NCBI GenBank assembly: GCA_965262615.1
Contig: OZ253545.1
Location: 128,001-192,000, forward strand
Length of the DNA: 64,000 nucleotides
Reading direction: 5' to 3'
DNA from: Alphaproteobacteria bacterium
Lineage (GTDB): Bacteria; Pseudomonadota; Alphaproteobacteria; GM7ARS4; G965262615
In this document: positions 47,016 to 57,301 of the stretch, piece after piece
Layout of the letters: every line of letters begins with the position of its first letter
How positions within the stretch are numbered: the stretch's first letter is position 1
Translations under genes and position numbers: made by a program
The notes under the pieces: generated by a model
The model's input: the letters and a program-made list of their open reading frames with translations, nothing else
Databases searched by the model: none
What the model was told of the DNA's origin: nothing

Positions 47016-48140
47016 ATGCCCAAAGACACTCCTCATCCCCGTTCTTGGCTTGGCTCGCATATTCCGTACGAAGCGGGTCTCTCCGATGCTGACACTATAG
47101 CAAAGGATATTGCCATTCACAAATTATCCGCCAATGAATCGGCACATGGCGTGTCTCCTGCGGTGCAGCGGGTGATTCACCAAGCGGCGACGCATTGTCA
47201 TCGTTATCCCGACCCGTCCCTTGTGCAATTGCGGCGGGCGTTGGCGGCACATCATGACCTCAATCTTGACGGCATTGTCTGTGGCAATGGCTCTGATGAG
47301 CTCATCACCCTGCTGCTGCACGCCTATGGCGGCGAGGGACGCTCCATTGTGATGGGACAATACGGCTTTATCTACTATGAAATCGCCGCCATGGCGGCGG
47401 GCATGACGGTGCGCAAAGCCCAAGAGTGTCCTCGCAAAGGCGTTGCCATTGATGCCATCGCTCAGCTCTATGATGACACCACGGCGTGCGTGTTTATTGC
47501 CAATCCCAACAATCCCACCGGTGCGTTGCTGTCGCCATCGGACATTGAGCAATTGATTGCCCTGACGCCGCCTCACATTCTCATTGTGCTGGATGCCGCC
47601 TATGCAGAATATGTGGATGATGCCGCCTATGATGGCGGCGCGCGCTGGGTGGAGCGTCATGACAATGTGGTGATGCTGCGAACATTTTCCAAGATTTATG
47701 GCTTGAGCGCATTACGGGTGGGCTGGTGCTATGCGCCGCCTGCCATTGCGTCTGTGTTGCAGCGTTTGCGCTCCCCTTTTAATGTGAATGCCATCGGACA
47801 GGCGGCGGCGGTGGCGGCTCTGGCGGACACAGCGCGCACCGACCAATTGCGTCTGGACAATCATGAGGCAAAACAAAAAGTGCGGGATGCATTGGCACAC
47901 ACCGCCATTGAGGTCATTCCTTCATGGGGCAATTTTTTGCTGCTGCGCTTTGCCTCACCACAGCAAGCACGCGATGCTTATGCTTATTTGCAACACAGAG
48001 GCATTCTGTTGCGCCGTCTGGAAGCGTATGATTTGCACGACTGCCTGCGGGTGACCATGGGAGCGGAAGATTCTTTGCAAATTTTCACCAAAACACTGTG
48101 CGAATTCATGGCACAATCGGACGGTGAGGCGACACTATGA
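47016..48140 (+). CDS. hisC: histidinol-phosphate aminotransferase
   Basis: KLSANE, RYPD, GNGSDE, NPNNPTG, DAAYAEY, RTFSKIYGL..LRVG. Confidence 0.95.
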   Translation: MPKDTPHPRSWLGSHIPYEAGLSDADTIAKDIAIHKLSANESAHGVSPAVQRVIHQAATHCHRYPDPSLVQLRRALAAHHDLNLDGIVCGNGSDELITLLLHAYGGEGRSIVMGQYGFIYYEIAAMAAGMTVRKAQECPRKGVAIDAIAQLYDDTTACVFIANPNNPTGALLSPSDIEQLIALTPPHILIVLDAAYAEYVDDAAYDGGARWVERHDNVVMLRTFSKIYGLSALRVGWCYAPPAIASVLQRLRSPFNVNAIGQAAAVAALADTARTDQLRLDNHEAKQKVRDALAHTAIEVIPSWGNFLLLRFASPQQARDAYAYLQHRGILLRRLEAYDLHDCLRVTMGAEDSLQIFTKTLCEFMAQSDGEATL

Positions 48141-49030
48141 AAGAAGACATGAGCGTTGTGTTTGATCAAATTGCCTTTGTGGGCGTTGGTTTGATTGGTG
48201 GCTCGTTGGCATTGGATGTCAAAGGGCGCGGTTTGGCGCGCGTCACCACCGCCTTTGACAAAAATGAACAAAACCGCCAGTTTATTCGTGAGTGTGGCAT
48301 CGTGGATCGCTGCTGCGATTCATTGCGAGATGCAGTCTATGATGCCGATGCCATCATTCTGGCTGTTCCTGTGGGTGTGATGGCGGCGGTGACTCAAGAC
48401 ATGATGCCTCATCTCAAACAGGGTGCGGTCATCATTGACACCGGCTCATCCAAGCGCACCATGATGGAGACGGTGCTGCCGTTGCTCAAGGAGGGCGTTC
48501 ATTGTGTGCCATCTCATCCTGTGGCGGGAACGGAACATTCGGGACCTCATGCCAGTGAGCGCAATTTGTTTGAGGGTCGCTGGTGTGTCATCACGCCGAG
48601 CGATGCCACGCCGCGCGCTGTCACCGAGCGGGTGAGCGATTTGTGGCGCGGCGTGGGCATGCGGGTGAAACAGATGGATGCTCGCACCCATGACGAGATT
48701 TTGGCTCTCACCTCTCATTTGCCGCACCTGATTGCCTTTTCCATTGTGGGGACGGCGACCGAATTGGAACAGGACTTGCATGACCAAGTGACGCGCTATG
48801 CGGCGGGTGGGTTTCGTGACTTCACCCGCATTGCCGCCTCGGACGCTGTCATGTGGCGCGATATTTTTCTGCAAAACAAGGACTTTGTGCTGGAGGCTCT
48901 CAATCATTTTGAGAACAAGCTCAAATGCTTCACCGATGCCATTGAGCAGGGCGACCGTGATGAACTCACCCGCCTCATTGATTGCAATCGCAAGGTGCGC
49001 CACGCCGTCATCAAAGAAGGACAAGAATAA
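48137..49030 (+). CDS. tyrA: prephenate/arogenate (cyclohexadienyl) dehydrogenase
   Basis: GVGLIGGS, DTGSSK, HPVAGTE.SG, SHLPH, GFRDFTRIA.SD..MWRDI. Confidence 0.94.
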   Translation: MKEDMSVVFDQIAFVGVGLIGGSLALDVKGRGLARVTTAFDKNEQNRQFIRECGIVDRCCDSLRDAVYDADAIILAVPVGVMAAVTQDMMPHLKQGAVIIDTGSSKRTMMETVLPLLKEGVHCVPSHPVAGTEHSGPHASERNLFEGRWCVITPSDATPRAVTERVSDLWRGVGMRVKQMDARTHDEILALTSHLPHLIAFSIVGTATELEQDLHDQVTRYAAGGFRDFTRIAASDAVMWRDIFLQNKDFVLEALNHFENKLKCFTDAIEQGDRDELTRLIDCNRKVRHAVIKEGQE

Positions 49031-49069
49031 CCTTGCGGCGATGGCGAATTTTGCCATATAATAGGTGTC

Positions 49070-49462
49070 ATGATGCGAGATGAGGTCAACAGCGACACCC
49101 AGCAAGACACCGTCATTGATGCACCGTTGCATGTGCTGGGCTATACTGATGAGGACGGTCTGTGGTGGGCGCGGGCACTGGAACTGGATGTGTTGGGACA
49201 CGGCGATACCTTTGCCGAGGCTCTGCAATGCCTCAGAGATGGACTGCAAATCTATTTTGAATATGCCCATGTCAAAGACATGGAAGATTCTTTACCCCGC
49301 CGAGCCGAAGCAAAGTATTGGAAGTTGTTTTACAATGCCAGCAAGCCGCGCATTATGATGCAAGGGGAAAAAATCAAAGACCCTGCGTATCATGCGGTGG
49401 CTATTCCACAACCCACCATTGACCCCAACGAGGAAATAATTTTTGATCCCATAATTGATTAA
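49070..49462 (+). CDS. HicB-like antitoxin, copy 1
   Basis: W.A..LE.D....GDTF.EA...L.....  partial RNase H fold typical of HicB; no C-terminal HTH seen. Confidence 0.75.
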   Translation: MMRDEVNSDTQQDTVIDAPLHVLGYTDEDGLWWARALELDVLGHGDTFAEALQCLRDGLQIYFEYAHVKDMEDSLPRRAEAKYWKLFYNASKPRIMMQGEKIKDPAYHAVAIPQPTIDPNEEIIFDPIID

Positions 49463-49552
49463 ATTCGTTTATTAAATAAACAACCGCCAATTGAATAACT
49501 AACTTGCCCCACCTCACTCACCTCCACTCACGCACATTTATCTAAGTAGGTA

Positions 49553-49580
49553 TTGACATATCTATCCTGCTCCCTATAAT
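49553..49580 (+). promoter_or_regulatory. near-consensus sigma70 promoter
   Basis: TTGACA-N16-TATAAT upstream of GGAG RBS and ATG 49618. Confidence 0.75.
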
Positions 49581-49617
49581 AAGAGTAACGATAATCCAGC
49601 ATAATGGAGACTAACCG

Positions 49618-50229
49618 ATGGGAGAGCAACGAAAAGTGTTTGTGTCAGAAGAAGTATTCGAATCCCTTAACAAGCTGTTAAGGGATCACAATGATTCATT
49701 CAGCAAAGTTATTGAGAGGCTTTTGGTTAGTAAAGAACCCCAAGATCCATTTAACTTTTTGTCTGTTGTCAGCGATAAAGTATCACCGCGACAAGCACGG
49801 GGGTATTCCTACGAGGTAATGGGAGGTCCATACAGTGTGCCAGCAAGCAGAGACGCACAGTTCAAGGCTTATAGCGATGTCATAAAGCGAGTGGCAAATC
49901 ATGCAGGAGACCAATTCTGTCAAAAATTTGCGAGACAGCAATTTATAAACAAGCGTTGCATCGCAAAAACGGAAGAAGATTTGTGCGGCAACTACTCAAT
50001 GGAAAGCACTAAACCAATCCCCATCATGCTCAATGGTAAAAAGTTCTTCATCTGTGCCAACTGTGACGAACAAACACGCATCCAATTCATTATCATCGCC
50101 TGTTATCTAGCTGGACTTAAATATGGCACGGATGTCAAGTTACTGAATGGATGGAATTATCTCGGCAAACACGGTCGCAAGCAAAAAGACCTTGCTGAGC
50201 AGTGGGCGCGCAATTTTGATTTACTTTGA
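49618..50229 (+). CDS. RHH-like + SeqA-like C-terminal domain protein, paralogue 1
   Basis: N-term KVFVSEEVFESL..SFSKVIERLL (strand-helix-helix); C-term CIAKTEEDL..KP..FFICAN..RIQFIIIAC..AGL. Confidence 0.55.
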   Translation: MGEQRKVFVSEEVFESLNKLLRDHNDSFSKVIERLLVSKEPQDPFNFLSVVSDKVSPRQARGYSYEVMGGPYSVPASRDAQFKAYSDVIKRVANHAGDQFCQKFARQQFINKRCIAKTEEDLCGNYSMESTKPIPIMLNGKKFFICANCDEQTRIQFIIIACYLAGLKYGTDVKLLNGWNYLGKHGRKQKDLAEQWARNFDLL

Positions 50230-50246
50230 ACAAAAGGTATAATCTC

Positions 50247-50483
50247 ATGAAAAGAACATACCGATGGAGTGAATTGCGTAAAATCCTACGCAAATACGAT
50301 TCCCGTTTTGAATTGGACAAAGGAAGAGGCAAGGGTAGCCACGCCCTCATTCGTCATCCCGACATCAATGGCAAAAAGGAAATTTACTTCATTCCGTGTC
50401 CTCGCGGGGACAAAACAGTCATCAGCAAAGCCTATCTTGGGGAGATTAAAAAGCGTTTCAATTTGCCAGACGATTTGCTATGA
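50247..50483 (+). CDS. HicA-like toxin, copy 1
   Basis: ELRKIL...F....RGKGSH..I.HP...IP..I....L..IKK: HicA dsRBD-like pattern with the GSH histidine. Confidence 0.82.
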   Translation: MKRTYRWSELRKILRKYDSRFELDKGRGKGSHALIRHPDINGKKEIYFIPCPRGDKTVISKAYLGEIKKRFNLPDDLL

Positions 50484-50546
50484 GGCGGAAACAAGTTTTC
50501 GCGCACATGGTGGATTTTCTCATACTTTTCCCATATAATGGATTCC

Positions 50547-50939
50547 ATGATGCGGGATGAGGTCAACAGCGACACTGGGCAAGACACCGTCATTGATGCG
50601 CCGTTGCATGTGCTGGGCTACACTGATGAGGACGGTCTGTGGTGGGCGCGGGCGTTGGAGGTGGATTTATTAGGACACGGCGATACTTTTGCTGAGGCTC
50701 TGCAGTGCCTCAAGGGTGTGCTCCAAGCCCACTTTGAATATGTCCATGTCAAAGGCATGGAAGATGCTTTGCCTCACCGAGCCGAAGCAAAGTATTGGCG
50801 GATGTTTTACAATGCCAGCAAGCCGCGCATTATCATGCAGGGGGGAAAAATCAAAGACCCTGCCTATCATGCGGTGGCTATTTCACAACCCACCATTGAC
50901 CCCAACGAGGAAATCATTTTTGATCCCATACTTGATTGA
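50547..50939 (+). CDS. HicB-like antitoxin, copy 2
   Basis: Close paralogue of 49070; upstream ATG 50538 overlaps the TATAAT box. Confidence 0.75.
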   Translation: MMRDEVNSDTGQDTVIDAPLHVLGYTDEDGLWWARALEVDLLGHGDTFAEALQCLKGVLQAHFEYVHVKGMEDALPHRAEAKYWRMFYNASKPRIIMQGGKIKDPAYHAVAISQPTIDPNEEIIFDPILD

Positions 50940-51206
50940 TTTCTTTGAGAAATAACCTCCACTTACAAAGTGTGTGTGTAACACCTGAGACTTCAAAGGT
51001 GTTAAGTGAGAGGTATTGATTGGGAAGTGTAGGCGTTGATTGGTAAGTGTTGTTACTTAACACCTACTTAAAAACCAAAACCTATAACTTAACCACACCT
51101 GAAACCACCTAAAATAAGAGCTTGATACCTTCATTATGAATGGATAAGAGGCAGATAAGGCATTTGCCTATTTCTAACATCAACCTCCAACTCAAGGAGA
51201 CAATCA

Positions 51207-51851
51207 ATGTACGACTGTTCAAAAATCAACATTGTGATTTCTCGAGATGTATTCGAGGAGTTGAACGCCCGTATAACCAGCCCCGACCAGAGCCTTAATT
51301 CTGTAATTAGGGAGCTGATAAAACGCGATAGCCATAGCACTCATAGCACCATGCTACCATCACAAGAAAGCAATACCTTTGCCCCAAGGGTCATGGATGT
51401 TGCGAGCAAGCCTCACGCGACAAAATCACGCTCTTCAAGACAAAATGGAGCATATTCTTATCGCGTCTTGAATCATGATGATGGTGAGGGTACGCAAGTT
51501 AAAGCCTTCAGGGAAATCATCCAACAGATTTGCGAAAACGCAAACGCTGATTTTTGCGAACGATTTGCCCATGCTGGCTTCCTCAAGCAACCATGTATTG
51601 CAAAAAGCGAAAATGACCTAATTGCTCACCGCGAGAAAATAGGTGTAAAACCACAAACCATCCAACTGAACGGCGAGCAATGGTTTATCTACACCAACCT
51701 TGACCTAGGAAAAAAGATTAGATACCTCATCACGGCGTGTCACATCGCCGATTTAGTATGGAATGAGGATGTGGTCTTGCTTGGTGACGCGTGGGCTACC
51801 TCCTCAAAAGAGGAGGCAGAGCATTGGGCGCGCAAGAGGGGACTCATCTGA
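51207..51851 (+). CDS. RHH-like + SeqA-like C-terminal domain protein, paralogue 2
   Basis: AAGGAG RBS; NIVISRDVFEEL..SLNSVIRELI; CIAKSENDL..KPQTIQ..WFIYTN.D.GKKIRYLITAC; aligns by eye with 49618. Confidence 0.58.
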   Translation: MYDCSKINIVISRDVFEELNARITSPDQSLNSVIRELIKRDSHSTHSTMLPSQESNTFAPRVMDVASKPHATKSRSSRQNGAYSYRVLNHDDGEGTQVKAFREIIQQICENANADFCERFAHAGFLKQPCIAKSENDLIAHREKIGVKPQTIQLNGEQWFIYTNLDLGKKIRYLITACHIADLVWNEDVVLLGDAWATSSKEEAEHWARKRGLI

Positions 51852-52042
51852 CAAAAAACTTGAATTAGGGGCGAGAGGATTTTTCTCCTTGTTTTACCTC
51901 TCGCAAGGCACGCACCCCGCCTGCTCTCCCCTGTGTTGCAGAGCCTTTATAAAGGCGAGAGAGCAAAGGGGTGCAACACACTGTTTCAAAGGGATAGCAA
52001 TAGTCTTGCGGCGATGGCGGCTTTTCTCATATAATGGATTCC

Positions 52043-52435
52043 ATGATGCGAGATGAGGTCAACAGCGACACTGGGCAAGACACCGTCATTGATGCACCCT
52101 TGCATGTGCTGGGTTACACTGATGAGGACGGTCTGTGGTGGGCACACGCGCTGGAGGTGGATTTGTTGGGACACGGCGATACTTTTGCCGAGGCTCTGCA
52201 GTGCCTCAAGGGTGTGCTCCAAGCCCACTTTGAATATGTCCATGTCAAAGGCATGGAAGATGCTTTGGCTCACCGAGCCGAGGCAAAGTATTGGCGGATG
52301 TTTTACAATGCCAGCAAGCCACGCATTATTGTGCAAGGGGAAAAAATCAAAGACCCGACATATCATGCGGTGGCTATTTCGCAACCCACCATTGACCCCA
52401 ACGAGGAAATTGTGTTTGAACCCGACCTTGATTAG
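52043..52435 (+). CDS. HicB-like antitoxin, copy 3
   Basis: Close paralogue; alternative start 52034. Confidence 0.75.
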   Translation: MMRDEVNSDTGQDTVIDAPLHVLGYTDEDGLWWAHALEVDLLGHGDTFAEALQCLKGVLQAHFEYVHVKGMEDALAHRAEAKYWRMFYNASKPRIIVQGEKIKDPTYHAVAISQPTIDPNEEIVFEPDLD

Positions 52436-52463
52436 CTTCTTTTAATTTGACGGAATTAATCTC

Positions 52464-52691
52464 ATGAAAAGAACATACCGATGGAGCGAATTGCGTAAAA
52501 TTTTGTGCAAGCACGATCGCCGATTTGAATTTGACAAAGGAAGAGGGAAGGGTAGCCACCGTACCATTCGTCATCCCGATTTCAAGAAGCCCTACACCAT
52601 TCCATGCCCTCGCGGTGACAAATCAGTCATCAGCAAAATTTATCTTAATCGTATCAAAAAGCGTTTCAATTTGCCAGACGATTTGCTGTAA
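52464..52691 (+). CDS. HicA-like toxin, copy 2
   Basis: RGKGSHRTIRHP..YTIPC. Confidence 0.82.
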   Translation: MKRTYRWSELRKILCKHDRRFEFDKGRGKGSHRTIRHPDFKKPYTIPCPRGDKSVISKIYLNRIKKRFNLPDDLL

Positions 52692-52811
52692 GAATTGAGC
52701 AGGGCGACCGTGAGAAGTTCGCCTCATTGATTGTCATCGCAAAGCGCGCCATAAGGTCATCAACAGCAATAGTCTTGCGCGAAACGCGACTTTTCCCATA
52801 TAATGGATTCC

Positions 52812-53204
52812 ATGATGCGGGATGAAGTCAATAGCGACACCAAGCAAGACACCGTCATTGATGCGCCGTTGCATGTGCTGGGCTATACTGATGAGGACGG
52901 TCTGTGGTGGGCACACGCGCTGGAGGTGGATTTGTTGGGACACGGCGATACTTTTGCCGAGGCTCTGCAATGCCTCAAAGGTGCACTGCAAATCTATTTT
53001 GAATATGCCTATGTAGAAAAAAAGGAAGACTCTTTGGCTCACCGAGCCGAAGCAAAATATTGGCGGATGTTTTACAATGCCAGCAAGCCCCGCATTATGG
53101 TGCAAGGGAAAAAAACCCAAAATCCTGAGTATCATGCGGTGATTATTCCACAACCCACCATTGATCCCAACGAGGAAATCATTTTTGATCCCATACTTGA
53201 TTAA
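52812..53204 (+). CDS. HicB-like antitoxin, copy 4
   Basis: Close paralogue; alternative start 52803. Confidence 0.75.
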   Translation: MMRDEVNSDTKQDTVIDAPLHVLGYTDEDGLWWAHALEVDLLGHGDTFAEALQCLKGALQIYFEYAYVEKKEDSLAHRAEAKYWRMFYNASKPRIMVQGKKTQNPEYHAVIIPQPTIDPNEEIIFDPILD

Positions 53205-53223
53205 TTTGTTGGGAATTAATCTC

Positions 53224-53460
53224 ATGAAAAAAACATACCGATGGAGCGAATTGCGTAAAATCCTACGCAAATACGATTCCCGTTTTGAATTTAGTAACAG
53301 AAGAGGCAAGGGCAGCCACGCCTATATTAGTCATCCCGACATCAATGGCAAAAAGAAGAGATACGCCATTCCGTGTCCTCGCGGGGACAAATCAGTCATC
53401 AGCAAAGTGTACCTTAATCGTATCAAAAAGCGTTTCAATTTACCAGATGATTTGCTATAA
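53224..53460 (+). CDS. HicA-like toxin, copy 3
   Basis: [17 protein letters not shown]. Confidence 0.82.
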
Positions 53461-53470
53461 GGATGGCGTT

Positions 53471-53746
53471 ATGAAAAAAGACATTCATCCCGCCTATCAC
53501 ACCATCACGGTGCAGATGACCGATGGCACATCTTTTGCCACGCGCTCCACCTGGGGCAAGGAAGGCGACACCCTGAAGCTGGAGGTGGATCGCCTCAGCC
53601 ATCCGGCATGGACGCAAGGCTCACGCAAACTGGTGGACAGTGGCGGACGAGTCGCCCGCTTTAAGCAACGCTTCAAAGGCATCGGCTCACTGGATGAATC
53701 CGCCAGTGATGCCAAACAAAACGCCAAAAAAGAACCCAAAAAGTGA
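53471..53746 (+). CDS. rpmE: 50S ribosomal protein L31 (zinc-free type)
   Basis: [30 protein letters not shown]. Confidence 0.96.
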
Positions 53747-55343: not shown

Positions 55344-55576
55344 TGAGCATTTTTGAAGGATTCGTGATTTACATCGTGCTGTGGTGGGTGATTTTCTTCA
55401 TGACACTGCCCCTGCGCTTTGAGTCGCAATCGCGTCCGCAAAAGGGACACGCCGAGAGCGCACCCACCAATCCTCGCATCGGCTTTAAGATGGCACTCAC
55501 ATCCGCCATCGCGTTGATTGTGTGGCTGGTGGTGTATGCCGTCATTGAGGCGGATGTGTATTCCTTTTATGAATGA
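55343..55576 (+). CDS. DUF1467 family membrane protein
   Basis: Y...WW..FF..LP..G...SAP..P. Confidence 0.88.
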   Translation: MSIFEGFVIYIVLWWVIFFMTLPLRFESQSRPQKGHAESAPTNPRIGFKMALTSAIALIVWLVVYAVIEADVYSFYE

Positions 55577-56153
55577 TTATTGCGACCGCGCCTTTGACCA
55601 TCCATTGCACCGTCAATGCCATGATGAGTCCTACGGCTTTCCCGTGAGCGATGACCGCGTGTTGTATGGGCGATTGTTGTTTGAGATTTTTCAGGCGGGG
55701 CTTAACTGGCTGCTGATTTTACAAAAAGCCGAAGCTCTGCAGCGCGCCTTTGCCGATTTTGATTACGACACGGTGGCTCAGTGGGGCGACACACAACACG
55801 CCCAATTGATGACCAACAAAGACATCATTCGCAATCGCCGCAAAATTCAGGCGGCGATGGATAATGCCCGCAGCGTGGTGGCGTTGCGCGCTGAGTGGGG
55901 GTCTTTTAAGAACTGGCTGGATGCCCATCACCCGCAAGATTTGGATGATTGGGTGGTGTTGTTTCGCCAGAATTTTGTCATGACAGGGCAGATTGTGGTG
56001 CATGAATTTTTGATGAGCACCGGATACCTCAAGGGCGCGCATCGCGATGACTGCCCCATTCAGAAAAAAATCATTACCCTCAACCCGCCGTGGCTACAGG
56101 CAGAAGCATCGTCTCTTGACACGCCTACCAAAAAAAGTAAATTCGCCCAATGA
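55569..56153 (+). CDS. tag: DNA-3-methyladenine glycosylase I
   Basis: HD..YG.PV.DD, E.FQAGL.W, IIRNR.KI.A...NA, FLMS.G...GAH...C. Confidence 0.93.
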   Translation: MNDYCDRAFDHPLHRQCHDESYGFPVSDDRVLYGRLLFEIFQAGLNWLLILQKAEALQRAFADFDYDTVAQWGDTQHAQLMTNKDIIRNRRKIQAAMDNARSVVALRAEWGSFKNWLDAHHPQDLDDWVVLFRQNFVMTGQIVVHEFLMSTGYLKGAHRDDCPIQKKIITLNPPWLQAEASSLDTPTKKSKFAQ

Positions 56154-57301
56154 ATAAAAAGGATTACAAAATCTTCGAGGGCGTAAACATCAAGGGGATA
56201 GCTGGTCTTCACGGCGATCTGAAAGATGGGAATCCTGCTCAGGAAAAATTACGCGATTATTTAGCTGGCTGTAATATTGAAACATTAAAAAGGCACGCTG
56301 AAGAGTGTCTTGAAGAGAAATTTGATGGATGCGGTTTTGTTCTGCAAGACATTGTCAACACACTGGCAAAACGCCTTGATTTAGAGGTAGTGCATGGTCG
56401 CTATAACCGTGCATCAAAAAAAGAAAACAACGGCTTTGATGGAATGTGGAAAACACACGACCATGATTTTGTGGTGGAAGTCAAAAAAGTAGACGACTTC
56501 AGCATGAACTTGGAAAACTTTGTTAAATACAGAGACCAGCTTTTACAAGAAGGAAGGATAGACAGTAAAAATCATTCGTTTCTATTAGTCGTGGGAGATA
56601 TGAAAAAAGGAGCTTTTGTAGCACAAGTCAAAGGAGACCTGAAAAGAGCTGGTGACACACGCATCATCACTGTGGAATCTTTGATTCAATTGGTGGAATT
56701 GAAAATGAAAGAGCTGCCTGGGCTTAATCCAGATTATTTTTGCGAAATTCTGAAACCTATTGACTACACTCGCGTGGATGGTCTTGTCACATTGCTGGAT
56801 AACATTGTATCCGATACAGCTGAGGCAGAAGAAGATAACATCCAAGAAATGGAACAAAACAAACAAAAAACAAAAAGTCATCGCCAAACAAACGATGACC
56901 ATCACAATAAAATTTTTACAACGATAGAAACAAAAACGGGCGGAAATCTTGAGAAAAAAGGAAGAGCTCGTTTTGAAAATTCTAAAACGGGAGAGCTCTT
57001 TTTCATTTTGTTTTCAAGAGAATACGAACATAAAAAAAATGCTCGTTATTGGTATGCATACGACCCTTCCCAAGAAGGTAACTTTTTGGCTCTTTGCACA
57101 AAAGAGCCAAGGGATTGGTTTTACCTAATCCCAACAGAAACAATTAAAGGTTTAATCAATGAAGGTAAGCTATCTCTTACAGACAAAAAGAAACTTTGTA
57201 ATATCCATATTGAGATTAGTAACGGACAATCAAAGATGAGGCTCAAAAAAGGTCACGGCGAGGAAGACATAGAACAGTATAAGGTTTCTCTGGTTTCGTG
57301 A
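56150..57301 (+). CDS. putative PD-(D/E)XK restriction-endonuclease-like protein
   Basis: LQDIVN.L...L, GFDGMW..FVVEVKK catalytic-like motif; AT-rich insert. Confidence 0.7.
   Translation: MNKKDYKIFEGVNIKGIAGLHGDLKDGNPAQEKLRDYLAGCNIETLKRHAEECLEEKFDGCGFVLQDIVNTLAKRLDLEVVHGRYNRASKKENNGFDGMWKTHDHDFVVEVKKVDDFSMNLENFVKYRDQLLQEGRIDSKNHSFLLVVGDMKKGAFVAQVKGDLKRAGDTRIITVESLIQLVELKMKELPGLNPDYFCEILKPIDYTRVDGLVTLLDNIVSDTAEAEEDNIQEMEQNKQKTKSHRQTNDDHHNKIFTTIETKTGGNLEKKGRARFENSKTGELFFILFSREYEHKKNARYWYAYDPSQEGNFLALCTKEPRDWFYLIPTETIKGLINEGKLSLTDKKKLCNIHIEISNGQSKMRLKKGHGEEDIEQYKVSLVS

Follow-up and report, generated by a model that had tools for sequence, protein, structure and literature searches.

The interval between tyrA and rpmE in this alphaproteobacterial genome holds HicA-type toxin genes (A) and small genes in antitoxin position (B), interleaved with two genes of another kind (S). 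In this study, we asked how this array arose and whether S belongs functionally with B and A. Throughout, the window is the whole stretch of DNA that was analysed, 64,000 nucleotides long.

Gene order and history of the array

We compared the ORF coordinates with the sequence of the interval (Table 1). The results showed nine genes in the order B1-S1-A1-B2-S2-B3-A2-B4-A3, all intact and all on the + strand, in agreement with the order, co-orientation and intactness given in the initial annotation. The left flank, tyrA, encodes prephenate/arogenate dehydrogenase. B3-A2 and B4-A3 adjoin directly, S1 separates B1 from A1, and no hicA goes with B2. The start of A1 lies 17 nt past the S1 stop, that of A2 28 nt past the B3 stop, and that of A3 19 nt past the B4 stop. 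The G+C content of the array was 0.41–0.49, lower than that of the flanks (0.52–0.64). All sense ORFs of the array were explained, and none of the seven antisense ORFs tested had a Pfam match. The Pfam search also bore out the earlier statement that integrases and transposases are missing from the array ORFs, and the flanking ORFs (~40.4–58.9 kb) were equally clean; an integron-type cassette array was rejected, as no integrase lies in the array or in these flanks.

Table 1. Coordinates of genes and sequence features in the array and its flanks
Feature	Position in window	Strand	Basis
tyrA, left flank	48137..49030	+	PDH_N E 1e-35, PDH_C E 3e-29; PRK07502
TATAAT box before B1	49057..49062	+	invariant columns, four aligned upstream regions
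B1, antitoxin-position gene, 129 aa, 'IYFEYA' type	49073..49462	+	ORF
Promoter-like site upstream of S1	49553..49580	+	TTGACA-16-TATAAT
S1, 203 aa	49618..50229	+	ORF; VapB_antitox E 1.2e-4
A1, HicA-type toxin gene, 78 aa	50247..50483	+	PF07927 19.0 bits; phrog_353 E 9.5e-5; GKGSH
B2, antitoxin-position gene, 'AHFEYV' type, no hicA after it	50550..50939	+	ORF
Three direct 20-nt repeats upstream of S2, candidate operator sites	50997..51050	+	repeat search
S2, 214 aa, S1 paralogue	51207..51851	+	VapB_antitox E 0.013
Structured spacer after S2	51852..52020	+	fold z-score -3.18
B3, antitoxin-position gene, 'AHFEYV' type	52046..52435	+	ORF
A2, HicA-type toxin gene, 75 aa	52464..52691	+	PF07927 27.9 bits; phrog_353 E 2.1e-6
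Decayed tyrA 3'-end copy (scar)	52694..52763	+	repeat families D5, D7
B4, antitoxin-position gene, 'IYFEYA' type	52815..53204	+	ORF
A3, HicA-type toxin gene, 78 aa	53224..53460	+	PF07927 22.8 bits; phrog_353 E 3.4e-6
rpmE (ribosomal protein L31), right flank	53471..53746	+	Ribosomal_L31 PF01197 E 3.6e-25

A repeat search revealed four 300-nt copies with 86–95% identity, far beyond chance. The scar, which starts 2 nt past the A2 stop, derives from the 3' end of tyrA (48941–49014) and consists of 20 exact nucleotides followed by a 44-nt part that is 82% identical; small deletions are also present. We read this remnant as marking a tandem-duplication junction, and it upheld the earlier claim of local amplification. 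The spacer after S2 contains a palindrome at 51943–51956, and its final ~15 nt resemble the tyrA end; no hicA remnant was found in it.

The hicB copies had been described as near-identical, but the B genes proved to be 82–94% identical in protein and 86–92% in DNA, with dS of 0.26–0.40 and dN/dS of 0.14–0.35. For the A paralogues, dS was 0.29–0.63 and dN/dS 0.19–0.42. The B and A copies are old, maintained paralogues. The array had also been called diversifying; variation is indeed patchy, but overall selection is purifying (dN/dS 0.14–0.42). Conflicting site partitions among the B copies (15, 5 and 2 sites) fall in blocks, indicating that the copies are mosaics produced by inter-copy recombination.

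Family assignment of the A and B genes

The identification of A as a HicA-family toxin gene was confirmed by matches to PF07927 (HicA_toxin) and to a PHROG toxin family, and by a G-K-G-S-H motif. Only A2 passes the PF07927 gathering cut-off of 27 bits, while A3 and A1 fall short, and PHROG 353 'toxin' matches all three copies, whose proteins are 80–81% identical to one another. Precomputed PF07927 matches were present in four of 12 homologue clusters. Residues G28, K29, G30, S31 and H32 were invariant in all 15 aligned A sequences, and the histidine of the HicA G-S-H motif has a catalytic role. We assign A to the HicA family on these features, and its products are predicted to be RNase toxins.

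B is an antitoxin by position only. The label 'HicB-like' did not survive: no HicB or UPF0150 model from Pfam or NCBIfam matched any of the four copies at E ≤ 1. The sole family-model match was DUF7387 (E 0.012–0.031, with 0.012 for B1), the PHROG 'HicB-like' family matched one of the four at E 0.17, and B1 carries a weak HicB-N/UPF0150-like motif. A B profile searched against the PDB gave one match, the HicB-like protein TTHA1756 (E 0.98), and a second search gave none. The hhalign comparison with E. coli HicB returned a probability of 7.7%, placing B 44–73 on HicB 25–54 and covering only a G-x-T-x-x-E-A-l type stretch. The B fold model (pLDDT 40.7) was unusable and gave no Foldseek match at E ≤ 0.001. 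No DNA-binding domain was detectable in B with Pfam, consistent with the earlier remark that these proteins have no DNA-binding tail. B1 is 97% identical to its homologue P0003.

The B copies fall into two types, 'IYFEYA' in B1 and B4 and 'AHFEYV' in B2 and B3. Likewise, A1 and A3 have 'DINGKK' in common, and A2 lacks the three residues concerned. The types co-vary in all three B/A modules, with 'IYFEYA' and 'DINGKK' together in B1/A1 and B4/A3, and 'AHFEYV' without 'DINGKK' in B3/A2. The TATAAT box precedes the first B1 ATG by 7 nt, and the same box with the same spacing is found before B2 (50534–50539), B3 and B4. This arrangement suggests that the hicB-like mRNA is leaderless or nearly so.

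The S genes and their association with B and A

S1 and S2 had been listed as unrelated genes, but they proved to be homologues of one another (31% identity, E 1e-30). The proposal that they are SeqA-like with an RHH-like head was supported by the VapB_antitox match, by Foldseek and by a profile match to SeqA. S1 consists of an RHH-like head (~7–39), a low-confidence linker (38–60), a SeqA-C-like body (~61–175) and a conserved C-terminal helix (186–199); this helix beyond the body is common to S1, S2, P0001 and P0011. Using the S1 fold model, which was built on a three-row alignment and is of moderate confidence (pLDDT 62.7), Foldseek ranks 1–5 were all SeqA (E 8.8e-4 to 0.31), with TM scores of 0.50–0.51 on the target for SeqA C-domain chains. 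A profile of eight S-family and distant sequences matched E. coli SeqA over its two domains (3fmt_A, E 5.2e-4) and also matched the isolated SeqA N-domain (E 0.039). Within the eight-row S alignment, SeqA matched one sequence (E 0.0026) and SeqA_N one (E 1.1e-4), both distant relatives and both below cut-off. The nine distant S relatives included two with sub-threshold SeqA, one with SeqA_N and three fused to HSDR_N. Protein-atlas ranks 8–9 for S were SeqA clusters, taken as a lead only. The Pfam models SeqA (PF03925) and SeqA_N (PF17206) gave no match to S1 or S2 at E ≤ 1.

We also compared the DNA-binding loop. SeqA N150 and N152 align with n and d columns of the S profile, which are N148 and D150 in S1. 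The close S family has Asn at the N150 position in four of five sequences and Asp at the N152 position in all five, so that one residue of the SeqA Asn pair is kept. We predict that S, most probably, binds DNA. The family is very rare, with three close relatives among 1.84 billion representatives, and evolves much faster than B: on a 159461-base contig, S is 68% identical and B1 97%.

The statement that S begins directly after a hicB stop holds for S-specific DNA, which starts ~10–25 nt past the stop, but not for the ORFs, which start 155 and 267 nt past it. The promoter-like site before S1 is a perfect consensus (12/12 matches) and the best of 12 sites found in the region. The repeats upstream of S2 are flanked by inverted repeats and are unique to this site within the window (2 matches vs 0 expected); their motif is absent from all hicB-like promoters.

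We then considered hicB-S-hicA co-occurrence elsewhere, assuming that proteins from contigs of equal length come from one and the same contig, with adjacency itself not visible. On this assumption, S homologues were found with B-like genes on all four S-bearing contigs, whereas HicA-like proteins were on only one of the four. B-like proteins were present on 14 contigs under the same assumption, ten of them without S. In the array, S1 and S2 have the same position relative to the preceding B gene, although their identity is 31%. From these data, we judge the S–B association to be long-standing.

Competing explanations and comparison with known systems

We estimate a probability of about one half that the locus is a chromosomal array of paralogous type II toxin-antitoxin modules of the hicBA kind, with a SeqA-fold, DNA-binding third gene S. 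A unit made of the tyrA 3' end, promoter, B and A would have been tandemly duplicated and then shuffled by recombination between copies. A would be a HicA RNase toxin and B, without a recognisable DNA-binding domain, the antitoxin that neutralises it, with B-A copies of two apparent specificity types. S would be a lineage-specific, fast-evolving family that occupies the B-A junction of two modules, most probably represses its own strong promoter and serves the array as a third component, either regulator or reader of DNA state; in module 1, A1 would be driven from the S1 promoter. The initial annotation had proposed a three-component toxin-antitoxin or defence module, but PADLOC defence models matched none of the nine array proteins. 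We consider a three-component mechanism, with S coupled to B or A, a reasonable inference and keep it at that level because B3-A2 and B4-A3 have no S in cis, a toxin gene is missing from B2-S2, only one of four S-bearing contigs showed HicA, the S2 repeat motif is absent from the hicB-like promoters, and no defence model matches. In a more specific and doubtful version, S would be a fast-evolving SeqA-fold sensor of DNA state, in a host that lies outside the Dam/SeqA world, and would gate release of the HicA RNase through the DNA-binding-less B. It would read incoming or replicating DNA that is unmethylated, hemimethylated or modified in some other way. If true, the array would amount to a set of abortive-infection modules coupled to sensors, with toxin-antitoxin specificities insulated from one another.

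It is possible, as a weaker candidate, that S is independent cargo kept by a recombination-prone toxin-antitoxin array and is functionally unconnected with B and A; it could, for example, recognise or protect methylated DNA or take part in an arms race against mobile elements. Both S genes have promoter-like regions and private repeat motifs of their own, two B-A modules do without S, S evolves far faster than B and has the lowest G+C of the array (0.41–0.43), and three of the nine distant relatives of its body are fused to the restriction-type nuclease domain HSDR_N, with none of the fusions being to toxin-antitoxin parts. Against these points stand the four of four S homologues on contigs with B-like genes (same-contig assignment assumed), a close family of just three other members among the 1.84 billion representatives, the two S types 31% identical in the same slot past a B stop, and the apparent co-transcription of S1 and A1. 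In a different pairing, B and S would form the true conserved pair, with S an effector checked by B, or S1-A1 would be a second pair, with S as RHH-headed antitoxin or repressor of HicA. We consider this improbable. In its favour, B2-S2 lacks a toxin gene, S1-A1 has an operon-like spacing behind a strong promoter, three of four S+B contigs show no HicA (same-contig assignment assumed), VapB_antitox, an antitoxin RHH family, gives a weak match to the S head (E 1.2e-4), the extra C-terminal helix is conserved in S1, S2, P0001 and P0011, and surplus SeqA disturbs replication and division, according to the part of the source consulted (PMC2691817). However, a toxin with its own perfect consensus promoter would be unusual, no A follows S2, the tyrA scar marks B-A as the unit that was duplicated, and B and A types co-vary in 3/3 modules.

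An assembly artefact, in which strain variants of one hicBA locus were stitched in tandem, is very improbable. Many related proteins do lie on very short contigs (673–2713 bases), as happens when repeats break assemblies, but the four junctions here are distinct and specific (A1/B2, S2 spacer/B3, A2/tyrA remnant/B4 and A3/rpmE), the copies differ by 8–14% in DNA and are easy to assemble, and two B-like proteins occur on six of 14 contigs of other assemblies (same-contig assignment assumed).

No published description of a combination of HicA, B and a SeqA-like gene was found. The array resembles HicAB of E. coli K-12 (hicA-hicB) in its small toxin with a Pfam HicA_toxin match and G-S-H histidine, in the small acidic co-oriented gene that adjoins the toxin gene, and in its mobile, patchy distribution. 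HicA and HicB are described as occurring 'strictly as unique pairs' in the portion of Makarova et al. (2009, PMC2701414) consulted, where HicB domains are also thought not to bind DNA, only some being fused to RHH or HTH. In contrast, B here matches no HicB/UPF0150 model, the order is B then A, and four B and three A genes stand in tandem with a third gene between B and A.

Superintegrons carry toxin-antitoxin cassettes in chromosomal cassette arrays. Like them, this locus has several co-oriented toxin-antitoxin modules interleaved with unrelated genes, but here the copies form a single paralogous family that bears a duplication scar, rather than a series of independent cassettes. A separate repressor is part of three-component toxin-antitoxin systems such as omega-epsilon-zeta and paaR2-paaA2-parE2. 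The resemblance lies in a third gene with an RHH-like head beside an antitoxin without a DNA-binding domain. For MNT-HEPN, the same portion of PMC2701414 raises the possibility that a DNA-binding component acts in trans. Unlike in those systems, S is placed between antitoxin and toxin gene, has a large body of probable SeqA fold, is missing from two modules and evolves at a far higher rate than its partners.

SeqA (3fmt, 1lrr, 1iu3, 3sk7), which in E. coli and its relatives reads hemimethylated GATC, is the protein that S matches best in fold and profile searches. In SeqA, an N-terminal head of ~35 residues is joined by a flexible linker to a C-terminal body of ~115 residues, and the DNA-binding loop has Asn150 and Asn152, as given in the part of PMC2691817 consulted. 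S appears to have the same head–flexible linker–body plan (S1 model pLDDT 62.7), and an Asn of S aligns with Asn150, whereas Asp stands at the Asn152 position. S further differs in its ~10–14% identity to SeqA, the missing Pfam SeqA/SeqA_N match and the extra conserved C-terminal helix. Its host is alphaproteobacterial, to which a TrcR match also points, with DNA that avoids GATC (observed/expected 0.29), and the S genes sit in a toxin-antitoxin array, whereas SeqA is a single housekeeping gene.

Array layout and origin of the copies

We located nine genes between tyrA and rpmE, namely the antitoxin-position genes B1 to B4, the HicA-type toxin genes A1 to A3, and S1 and S2, which encode SeqA-like proteins with an RHH-like head (table below). 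The order B1-S1-A1-B2-S2-B3-A2-B4-A3 claimed in the initial annotation was confirmed, with 9/9 genes intact and on the plus strand. The array is preceded by the housekeeping genes hisC and tyrA and followed by rpmE, a PIG3-type quinone oxidoreductase, TrcR, DUF1467 and a methyladenine glycosylase; its G+C content was 0.41-0.49, compared with 0.52-0.64 in the flanks. None of 7 antisense ORFs examined in the array matched Pfam, and the only Rfam matches in the window were 2 tRNAs, with no match in the array region even at E ≤ 1.

Genes and upstream elements of the array
Feature	Coordinates	Strand	Basis or remark
B1	49073-49462	+	ORF listing and sequence reading
S1	49618-50229	+	ORF listing and sequence reading
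A1	50247-50483	+	ORF listing and sequence reading
B2	50550-50939	+	ORF listing and sequence reading
S2	51207-51851	+	ORF listing and sequence reading
B3	52046-52435	+	ORF listing and sequence reading
A2	52464-52691	+	ORF listing and sequence reading
B4	52815-53204	+	ORF listing and sequence reading
A3	53224-53460	+	ORF listing and sequence reading
B1 TATAAT-to-ATG stretch	49057-49073		same place before B3 and B4
B2 TATAAT-to-ATG stretch	50534-50550		same place before B3 and B4
Three direct 20-nt repeats and an 11-nt perfect inverted repeat	50997-51093		5' of S2

The ATG giving MRDEV was chosen as the B start because 7 of 8 database homologues begin there; the alternative longer start (MDSM) overlaps a conserved TATAAT box. 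This box was found 5' of all four B genes, ending 7 nt before the first ATG, and a clear ribosome-binding site was not seen before B2-B4. The B mRNAs may be leaderless. Downstream of the array, the methyladenine glycosylase ORF matches its Pfam profile over positions 5-113 alone, out of 177, and is followed by a 383-aa ORF (56150-57301) without a Pfam family, at a local G+C of 0.36-0.43; the 55518-57301 stretch may be a second foreign insertion.

The four B regions formed one 300-nt repeat family with 86-95% identity, and the A regions formed repeat families with 77-90% identity. The 3'-end stretch of tyrA at 48941-48960 was repeated exactly at 52694-52713, and tyrA 48971-49014 was repeated at 52720-52763 with 82% identity, with small deletions between the two repeated stretches. 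This copy of the tyrA end starts 2 nt past the A2 stop and lies directly 5' of the B4 promoter region, as expected for the junction left by tandem duplication of a segment that began within tyrA and ended shortly after hicA. A further remnant of the tyrA end, about 15 nt long, was kept 5' of B3. An integron-like array was considered and rejected, since no integrase was found in the array or in the flanking ORFs examined (about 40.4-58.9 kb) and since the copies are paralogous and bear a duplication scar.

The dS values ranged from 0.26 to 0.40 between B copies and from 0.29 to 0.63 between A copies, so that the duplications are old and the earlier description of the copies as near-identical was overstated. 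The dN/dS values were 0.14-0.35 for B and 0.19-0.42 for A, indicating that all copies are maintained by selection. The array had also been called diversifying; this holds for patchy amino-acid changes in B (residues ~54-76 and ~94-112) but not for the genes as a whole, which are under overall constraint (dN/dS 0.14-0.42). Site partitions among the B copies were incompatible and clustered in blocks: 15 sites, mostly within nt 156-217, grouped B1 with B4 against B2 with B3, 5 sites grouped B1 with B2 against B3 with B4, and 2 sites grouped B1 with B3 against B2 with B4, while nt 91-150 were identical in B3 and B4. These block-wise conflicts indicate that segments were exchanged between copies. 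Tandem duplication of a hicBA-type module, followed by long maintenance and exchange between copies, is well supported. Even without any coupling to S, the locus illustrates clearly, in a natural setting, how a toxin-antitoxin pair multiplies in place, with a preserved duplication scar, inter-copy recombination and two apparent, co-varying specificity types.

Toxin and antitoxin-position genes

The A2 protein passed the Pfam HicA_toxin gathering score (27.9 bits against 27), A3 and A1 scored below it (22.8 and 19.0 bits), and 3/3 A copies matched PHROG 353 'toxin'. The G-K-G-S-H motif, whose histidine has a catalytic role in HicA, was kept in 15/15 aligned A sequences from the window and the database. 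Comparison of the HicA alignment with E. coli HicA by hhalign gave no meaningful alignment, so the HicA membership of A rests on Pfam and PHROGs. The word-indexed search returned 12 database relatives of A. The HicA-like protein P0034, encoded on an 8368-base contig, has 108 aa and an internal tandem duplication of ~30 residues that includes G-K-G-S-H.

The label 'HicB-like' for B found no such support. The HicB, HicB_lk_antitox and UPF0150 models matched 0/4 B copies at E ≤ 1, and the sole model match was DUF7387 (E 0.012-0.031). One of two PDB profile searches gave the HicB-like TTHA1756 at E 0.98 and the other gave nothing; hhalign aligned B to E. coli HicB with 7.7% probability, over a stretch that we take to be the hallmark of the HicB N-domain. 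The B structure model was unusable (pLDDT 40.7) and a Foldseek search with it was empty, while the protein atlas placed B among unnamed clusters only, with HicB_lk_antitox clusters at the chance level of 0.80-0.81. B is thus a putative antitoxin by position rather than by a HicB family match. The positional evidence is twofold: in two modules hicA follows B after a gap of 19-28 nt, and the variants of B and A co-vary. One variant patch is common to B1 and B4, an insertion is common to the toxins paired with them, A1 and A3, and the other forms are found in B3 and A2, so that the types paired in 3/3 modules, a small number. The absence of a DNA-binding tail in B was borne out, as no such domain was detectable in the conserved C-terminal 55 residues. 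According to PMC2701414, HicB domains are probably not DNA-binding, and RHH or HTH fusions occur in some only.

Near residue 105, the B-like proteins P0008 and P0009 from other assemblies switch to +1-frame sequence, which corresponds to an alternative ORF of the window (52053-52445), indicating that some B copies elsewhere are frameshifted.

S proteins and their cassettes

S1 and S2 were homologous (31% identity, E 1e-30), and their heads weakly matched the RHH antitoxin family VapB_antitox (E 1.2e-4 and 0.013). The S1 model (pLDDT 62.7, from a 3-row alignment) comprised a small head, a low-confidence linker (residues 38-60), a body of alpha/beta type and, at the end, a helix. A Foldseek search of the PDB with this moderate-pLDDT model returned SeqA at ranks 1-5 (best 3fmt_B, E 8.8e-4), with TM values of 0.50-0.51 on the target, isolated SeqA C-domain chains; viral structures gave no match at E ≤ 0.001. 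A profile built from S1, S2, three close and three distant relatives aligned to both domains of E. coli SeqA (3fmt_A, E 5.2e-4) and to the SeqA N-domain (1xrx, E 0.039). Among nine distant S relatives, the family matches were two sub-threshold SeqA, one SeqA_N, three HSDR_N (restriction-type nuclease) and one DUF4357. In the protein atlas, SeqA clusters appeared at ranks 8-9 with a score of 0.85, which is a lead only, and S failed the family-membership test of Pfam SeqA. In the profile alignment, SeqA Asn150 corresponds to S1 N148 and SeqA Asn152 to S1 D150; within the close S family (n=5) the Asp was present in 5/5 and the Asn in 4/5. PMC2691817 assigns SeqA residues 1-33 to oligomerisation, 34-64 to a linker and 65-181 to DNA binding, a plan with which the head, linker and body of S agree. 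Together, the initial reading of S as SeqA-like with an RHH-like head was upheld, and S is probably a remote relative of SeqA by fold, with a changed recognition loop, outside the SeqA family as defined by Pfam. With the S family, the SeqA fold would also reach a lineage in whose DNA GATC is strongly avoided.

Several short palindromes were strongly avoided in the window (1-64000), with observed/expected ratios of 0.03 for ACGT (4 sites), 0.06 for GGCC, 0.10 for TCGA, 0.22 for CCGG, 0.29 for GATC and 0.39 for CTAG, and ratios near 1 for AATT, TATA and AGCT, a pattern suggestive of strong pressure from restriction-modification systems. ACGT, GGCC and CCGG are likewise missing from the array, but of the 15 TCGA sites in the window 3 lie there, each in the 5' end of S1 or S2. 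Remote homologues of the S body were found as the C-terminal domains of four 465-537-aa database proteins (P0012, P0013, P0017 and P0019), of which three carry an HSDR_N / PD-(D/E)XK-type nuclease part and one DUF4357; restriction-type enzymes may thus make use of a SeqA-like reader domain.

Each S gene had been described as beginning, with its own upstream region, directly after a hicB stop. The S ORFs start 155 and 267 nt past those stops, though S-specific DNA does start ~10-25 nt past the B1 and B2 stops, at the place taken in B3-A2 and B4-A3 by the hicA ribosome-binding region. The 5' region of S1 contained a perfect TTGACA-16-TATAAT promoter-like site, and only 17 nt separate the S1 stop from the A1 start, so S1 and A1 look co-transcribed. 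A 9-10-nt unit in 2.3 copies lies 5' of S1 (49510-49531). The S2 upstream region also contains several inverted repeats. The repeats upstream of S2 resemble iterons or operators, and the 20-nt repeat occurred nowhere else in the window, hicB-like promoters included. The 180 nt 3' of S2 showed unusually strong predicted folding (z -3.18) and contained no hicA remnant.

Rarity of S and its possible coupling to B and A

A full HMMER scan of 1.84 billion representatives with S yielded 12 proteins at E ≤ 0.001, 3 of them at E ≤ 1e-10, and the word-indexed search yielded 1 S relative and 8 B relatives, the latter all at least 54% identical. Across 185,579 species-representative genomes, no relative of S (29 pattern matches, 0 confirmed) or of B (76 pattern matches, 0 confirmed) was found. 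By tblastn, S1 had no match in plasmids or phages and B2 none in plasmids. Both families occur on only a few related metagenome contigs, and this rarity, with absence from species-representative genomes, limits generality.

We then assessed co-residence elsewhere, assuming contigs of equal size to be one contig. The S homologues P0001, P0021, P0010 and P0011 lie on contigs of 18585, 159461, 8368 and 24379 bases. Under this assumption, B-like proteins, one or two each, were present on 4/4 of these contigs, and HicA-like proteins on 1/4, the 8368-base contig, which held three (10 of 12 HicA clusters were listed; the other two have one member each, on other contigs). On this equal-size reading, S homologues elsewhere therefore share a contig with a B-like gene in every case and with HicA in only one. 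Among 14 contigs carrying B-like proteins, again matched by equal size, 4 carried S and 6 carried two B copies.

We favour, at a probability of about 0.5, the reading that S is a self-repressing DNA-binding protein, which would supply the DNA-binding or DNA-state-reading function that B lacks. A real S-B partnership is favoured by the finding that two deeply diverged S types occupy the same slot and that every S relative found co-resides with a B-like gene on contigs matched by size. A complex prediction of B1, A1 and S1, with S1 as partner, scored 0.09 against a mark of 0.32 and is given no weight in either direction. On the 159461-base contig the B1 counterpart was 97% identical and the S1 counterpart 68%, indicating that S evolves much faster than its neighbour. 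The main rival reading, which we consider less likely, is that S is fast-evolving cargo that merely resides in the array and acts independently. Less likely still, and doubtful in our judgement, is a B-S pair or S acting as the antitoxin for A1. That the array is a misassembly is highly improbable, since two B copies on 6/14 B-carrying contigs argue against an assembly artefact.

PADLOC defence models matched 0/9 array proteins. A literature search covering sources other than subscription journals returned no account of a SeqA-like gene accompanying a hic module. The array anatomy is unusual and testable, and the S-B-A coupling that we infer is unproven. If S does work with the B-A pairs, the array would be the first hic-type system in which a separate third component binds DNA, and S the first protein of SeqA fold to be linked to a toxin-antitoxin module. 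The methylation or replication state of DNA would then be connected to an RNase toxin by a path that can be tested. In PMC2701414 (Makarova et al. 2009), HicA-HicB is said to occur strictly as unique pairs, whereas the locus described here carries multiple tandem copies.
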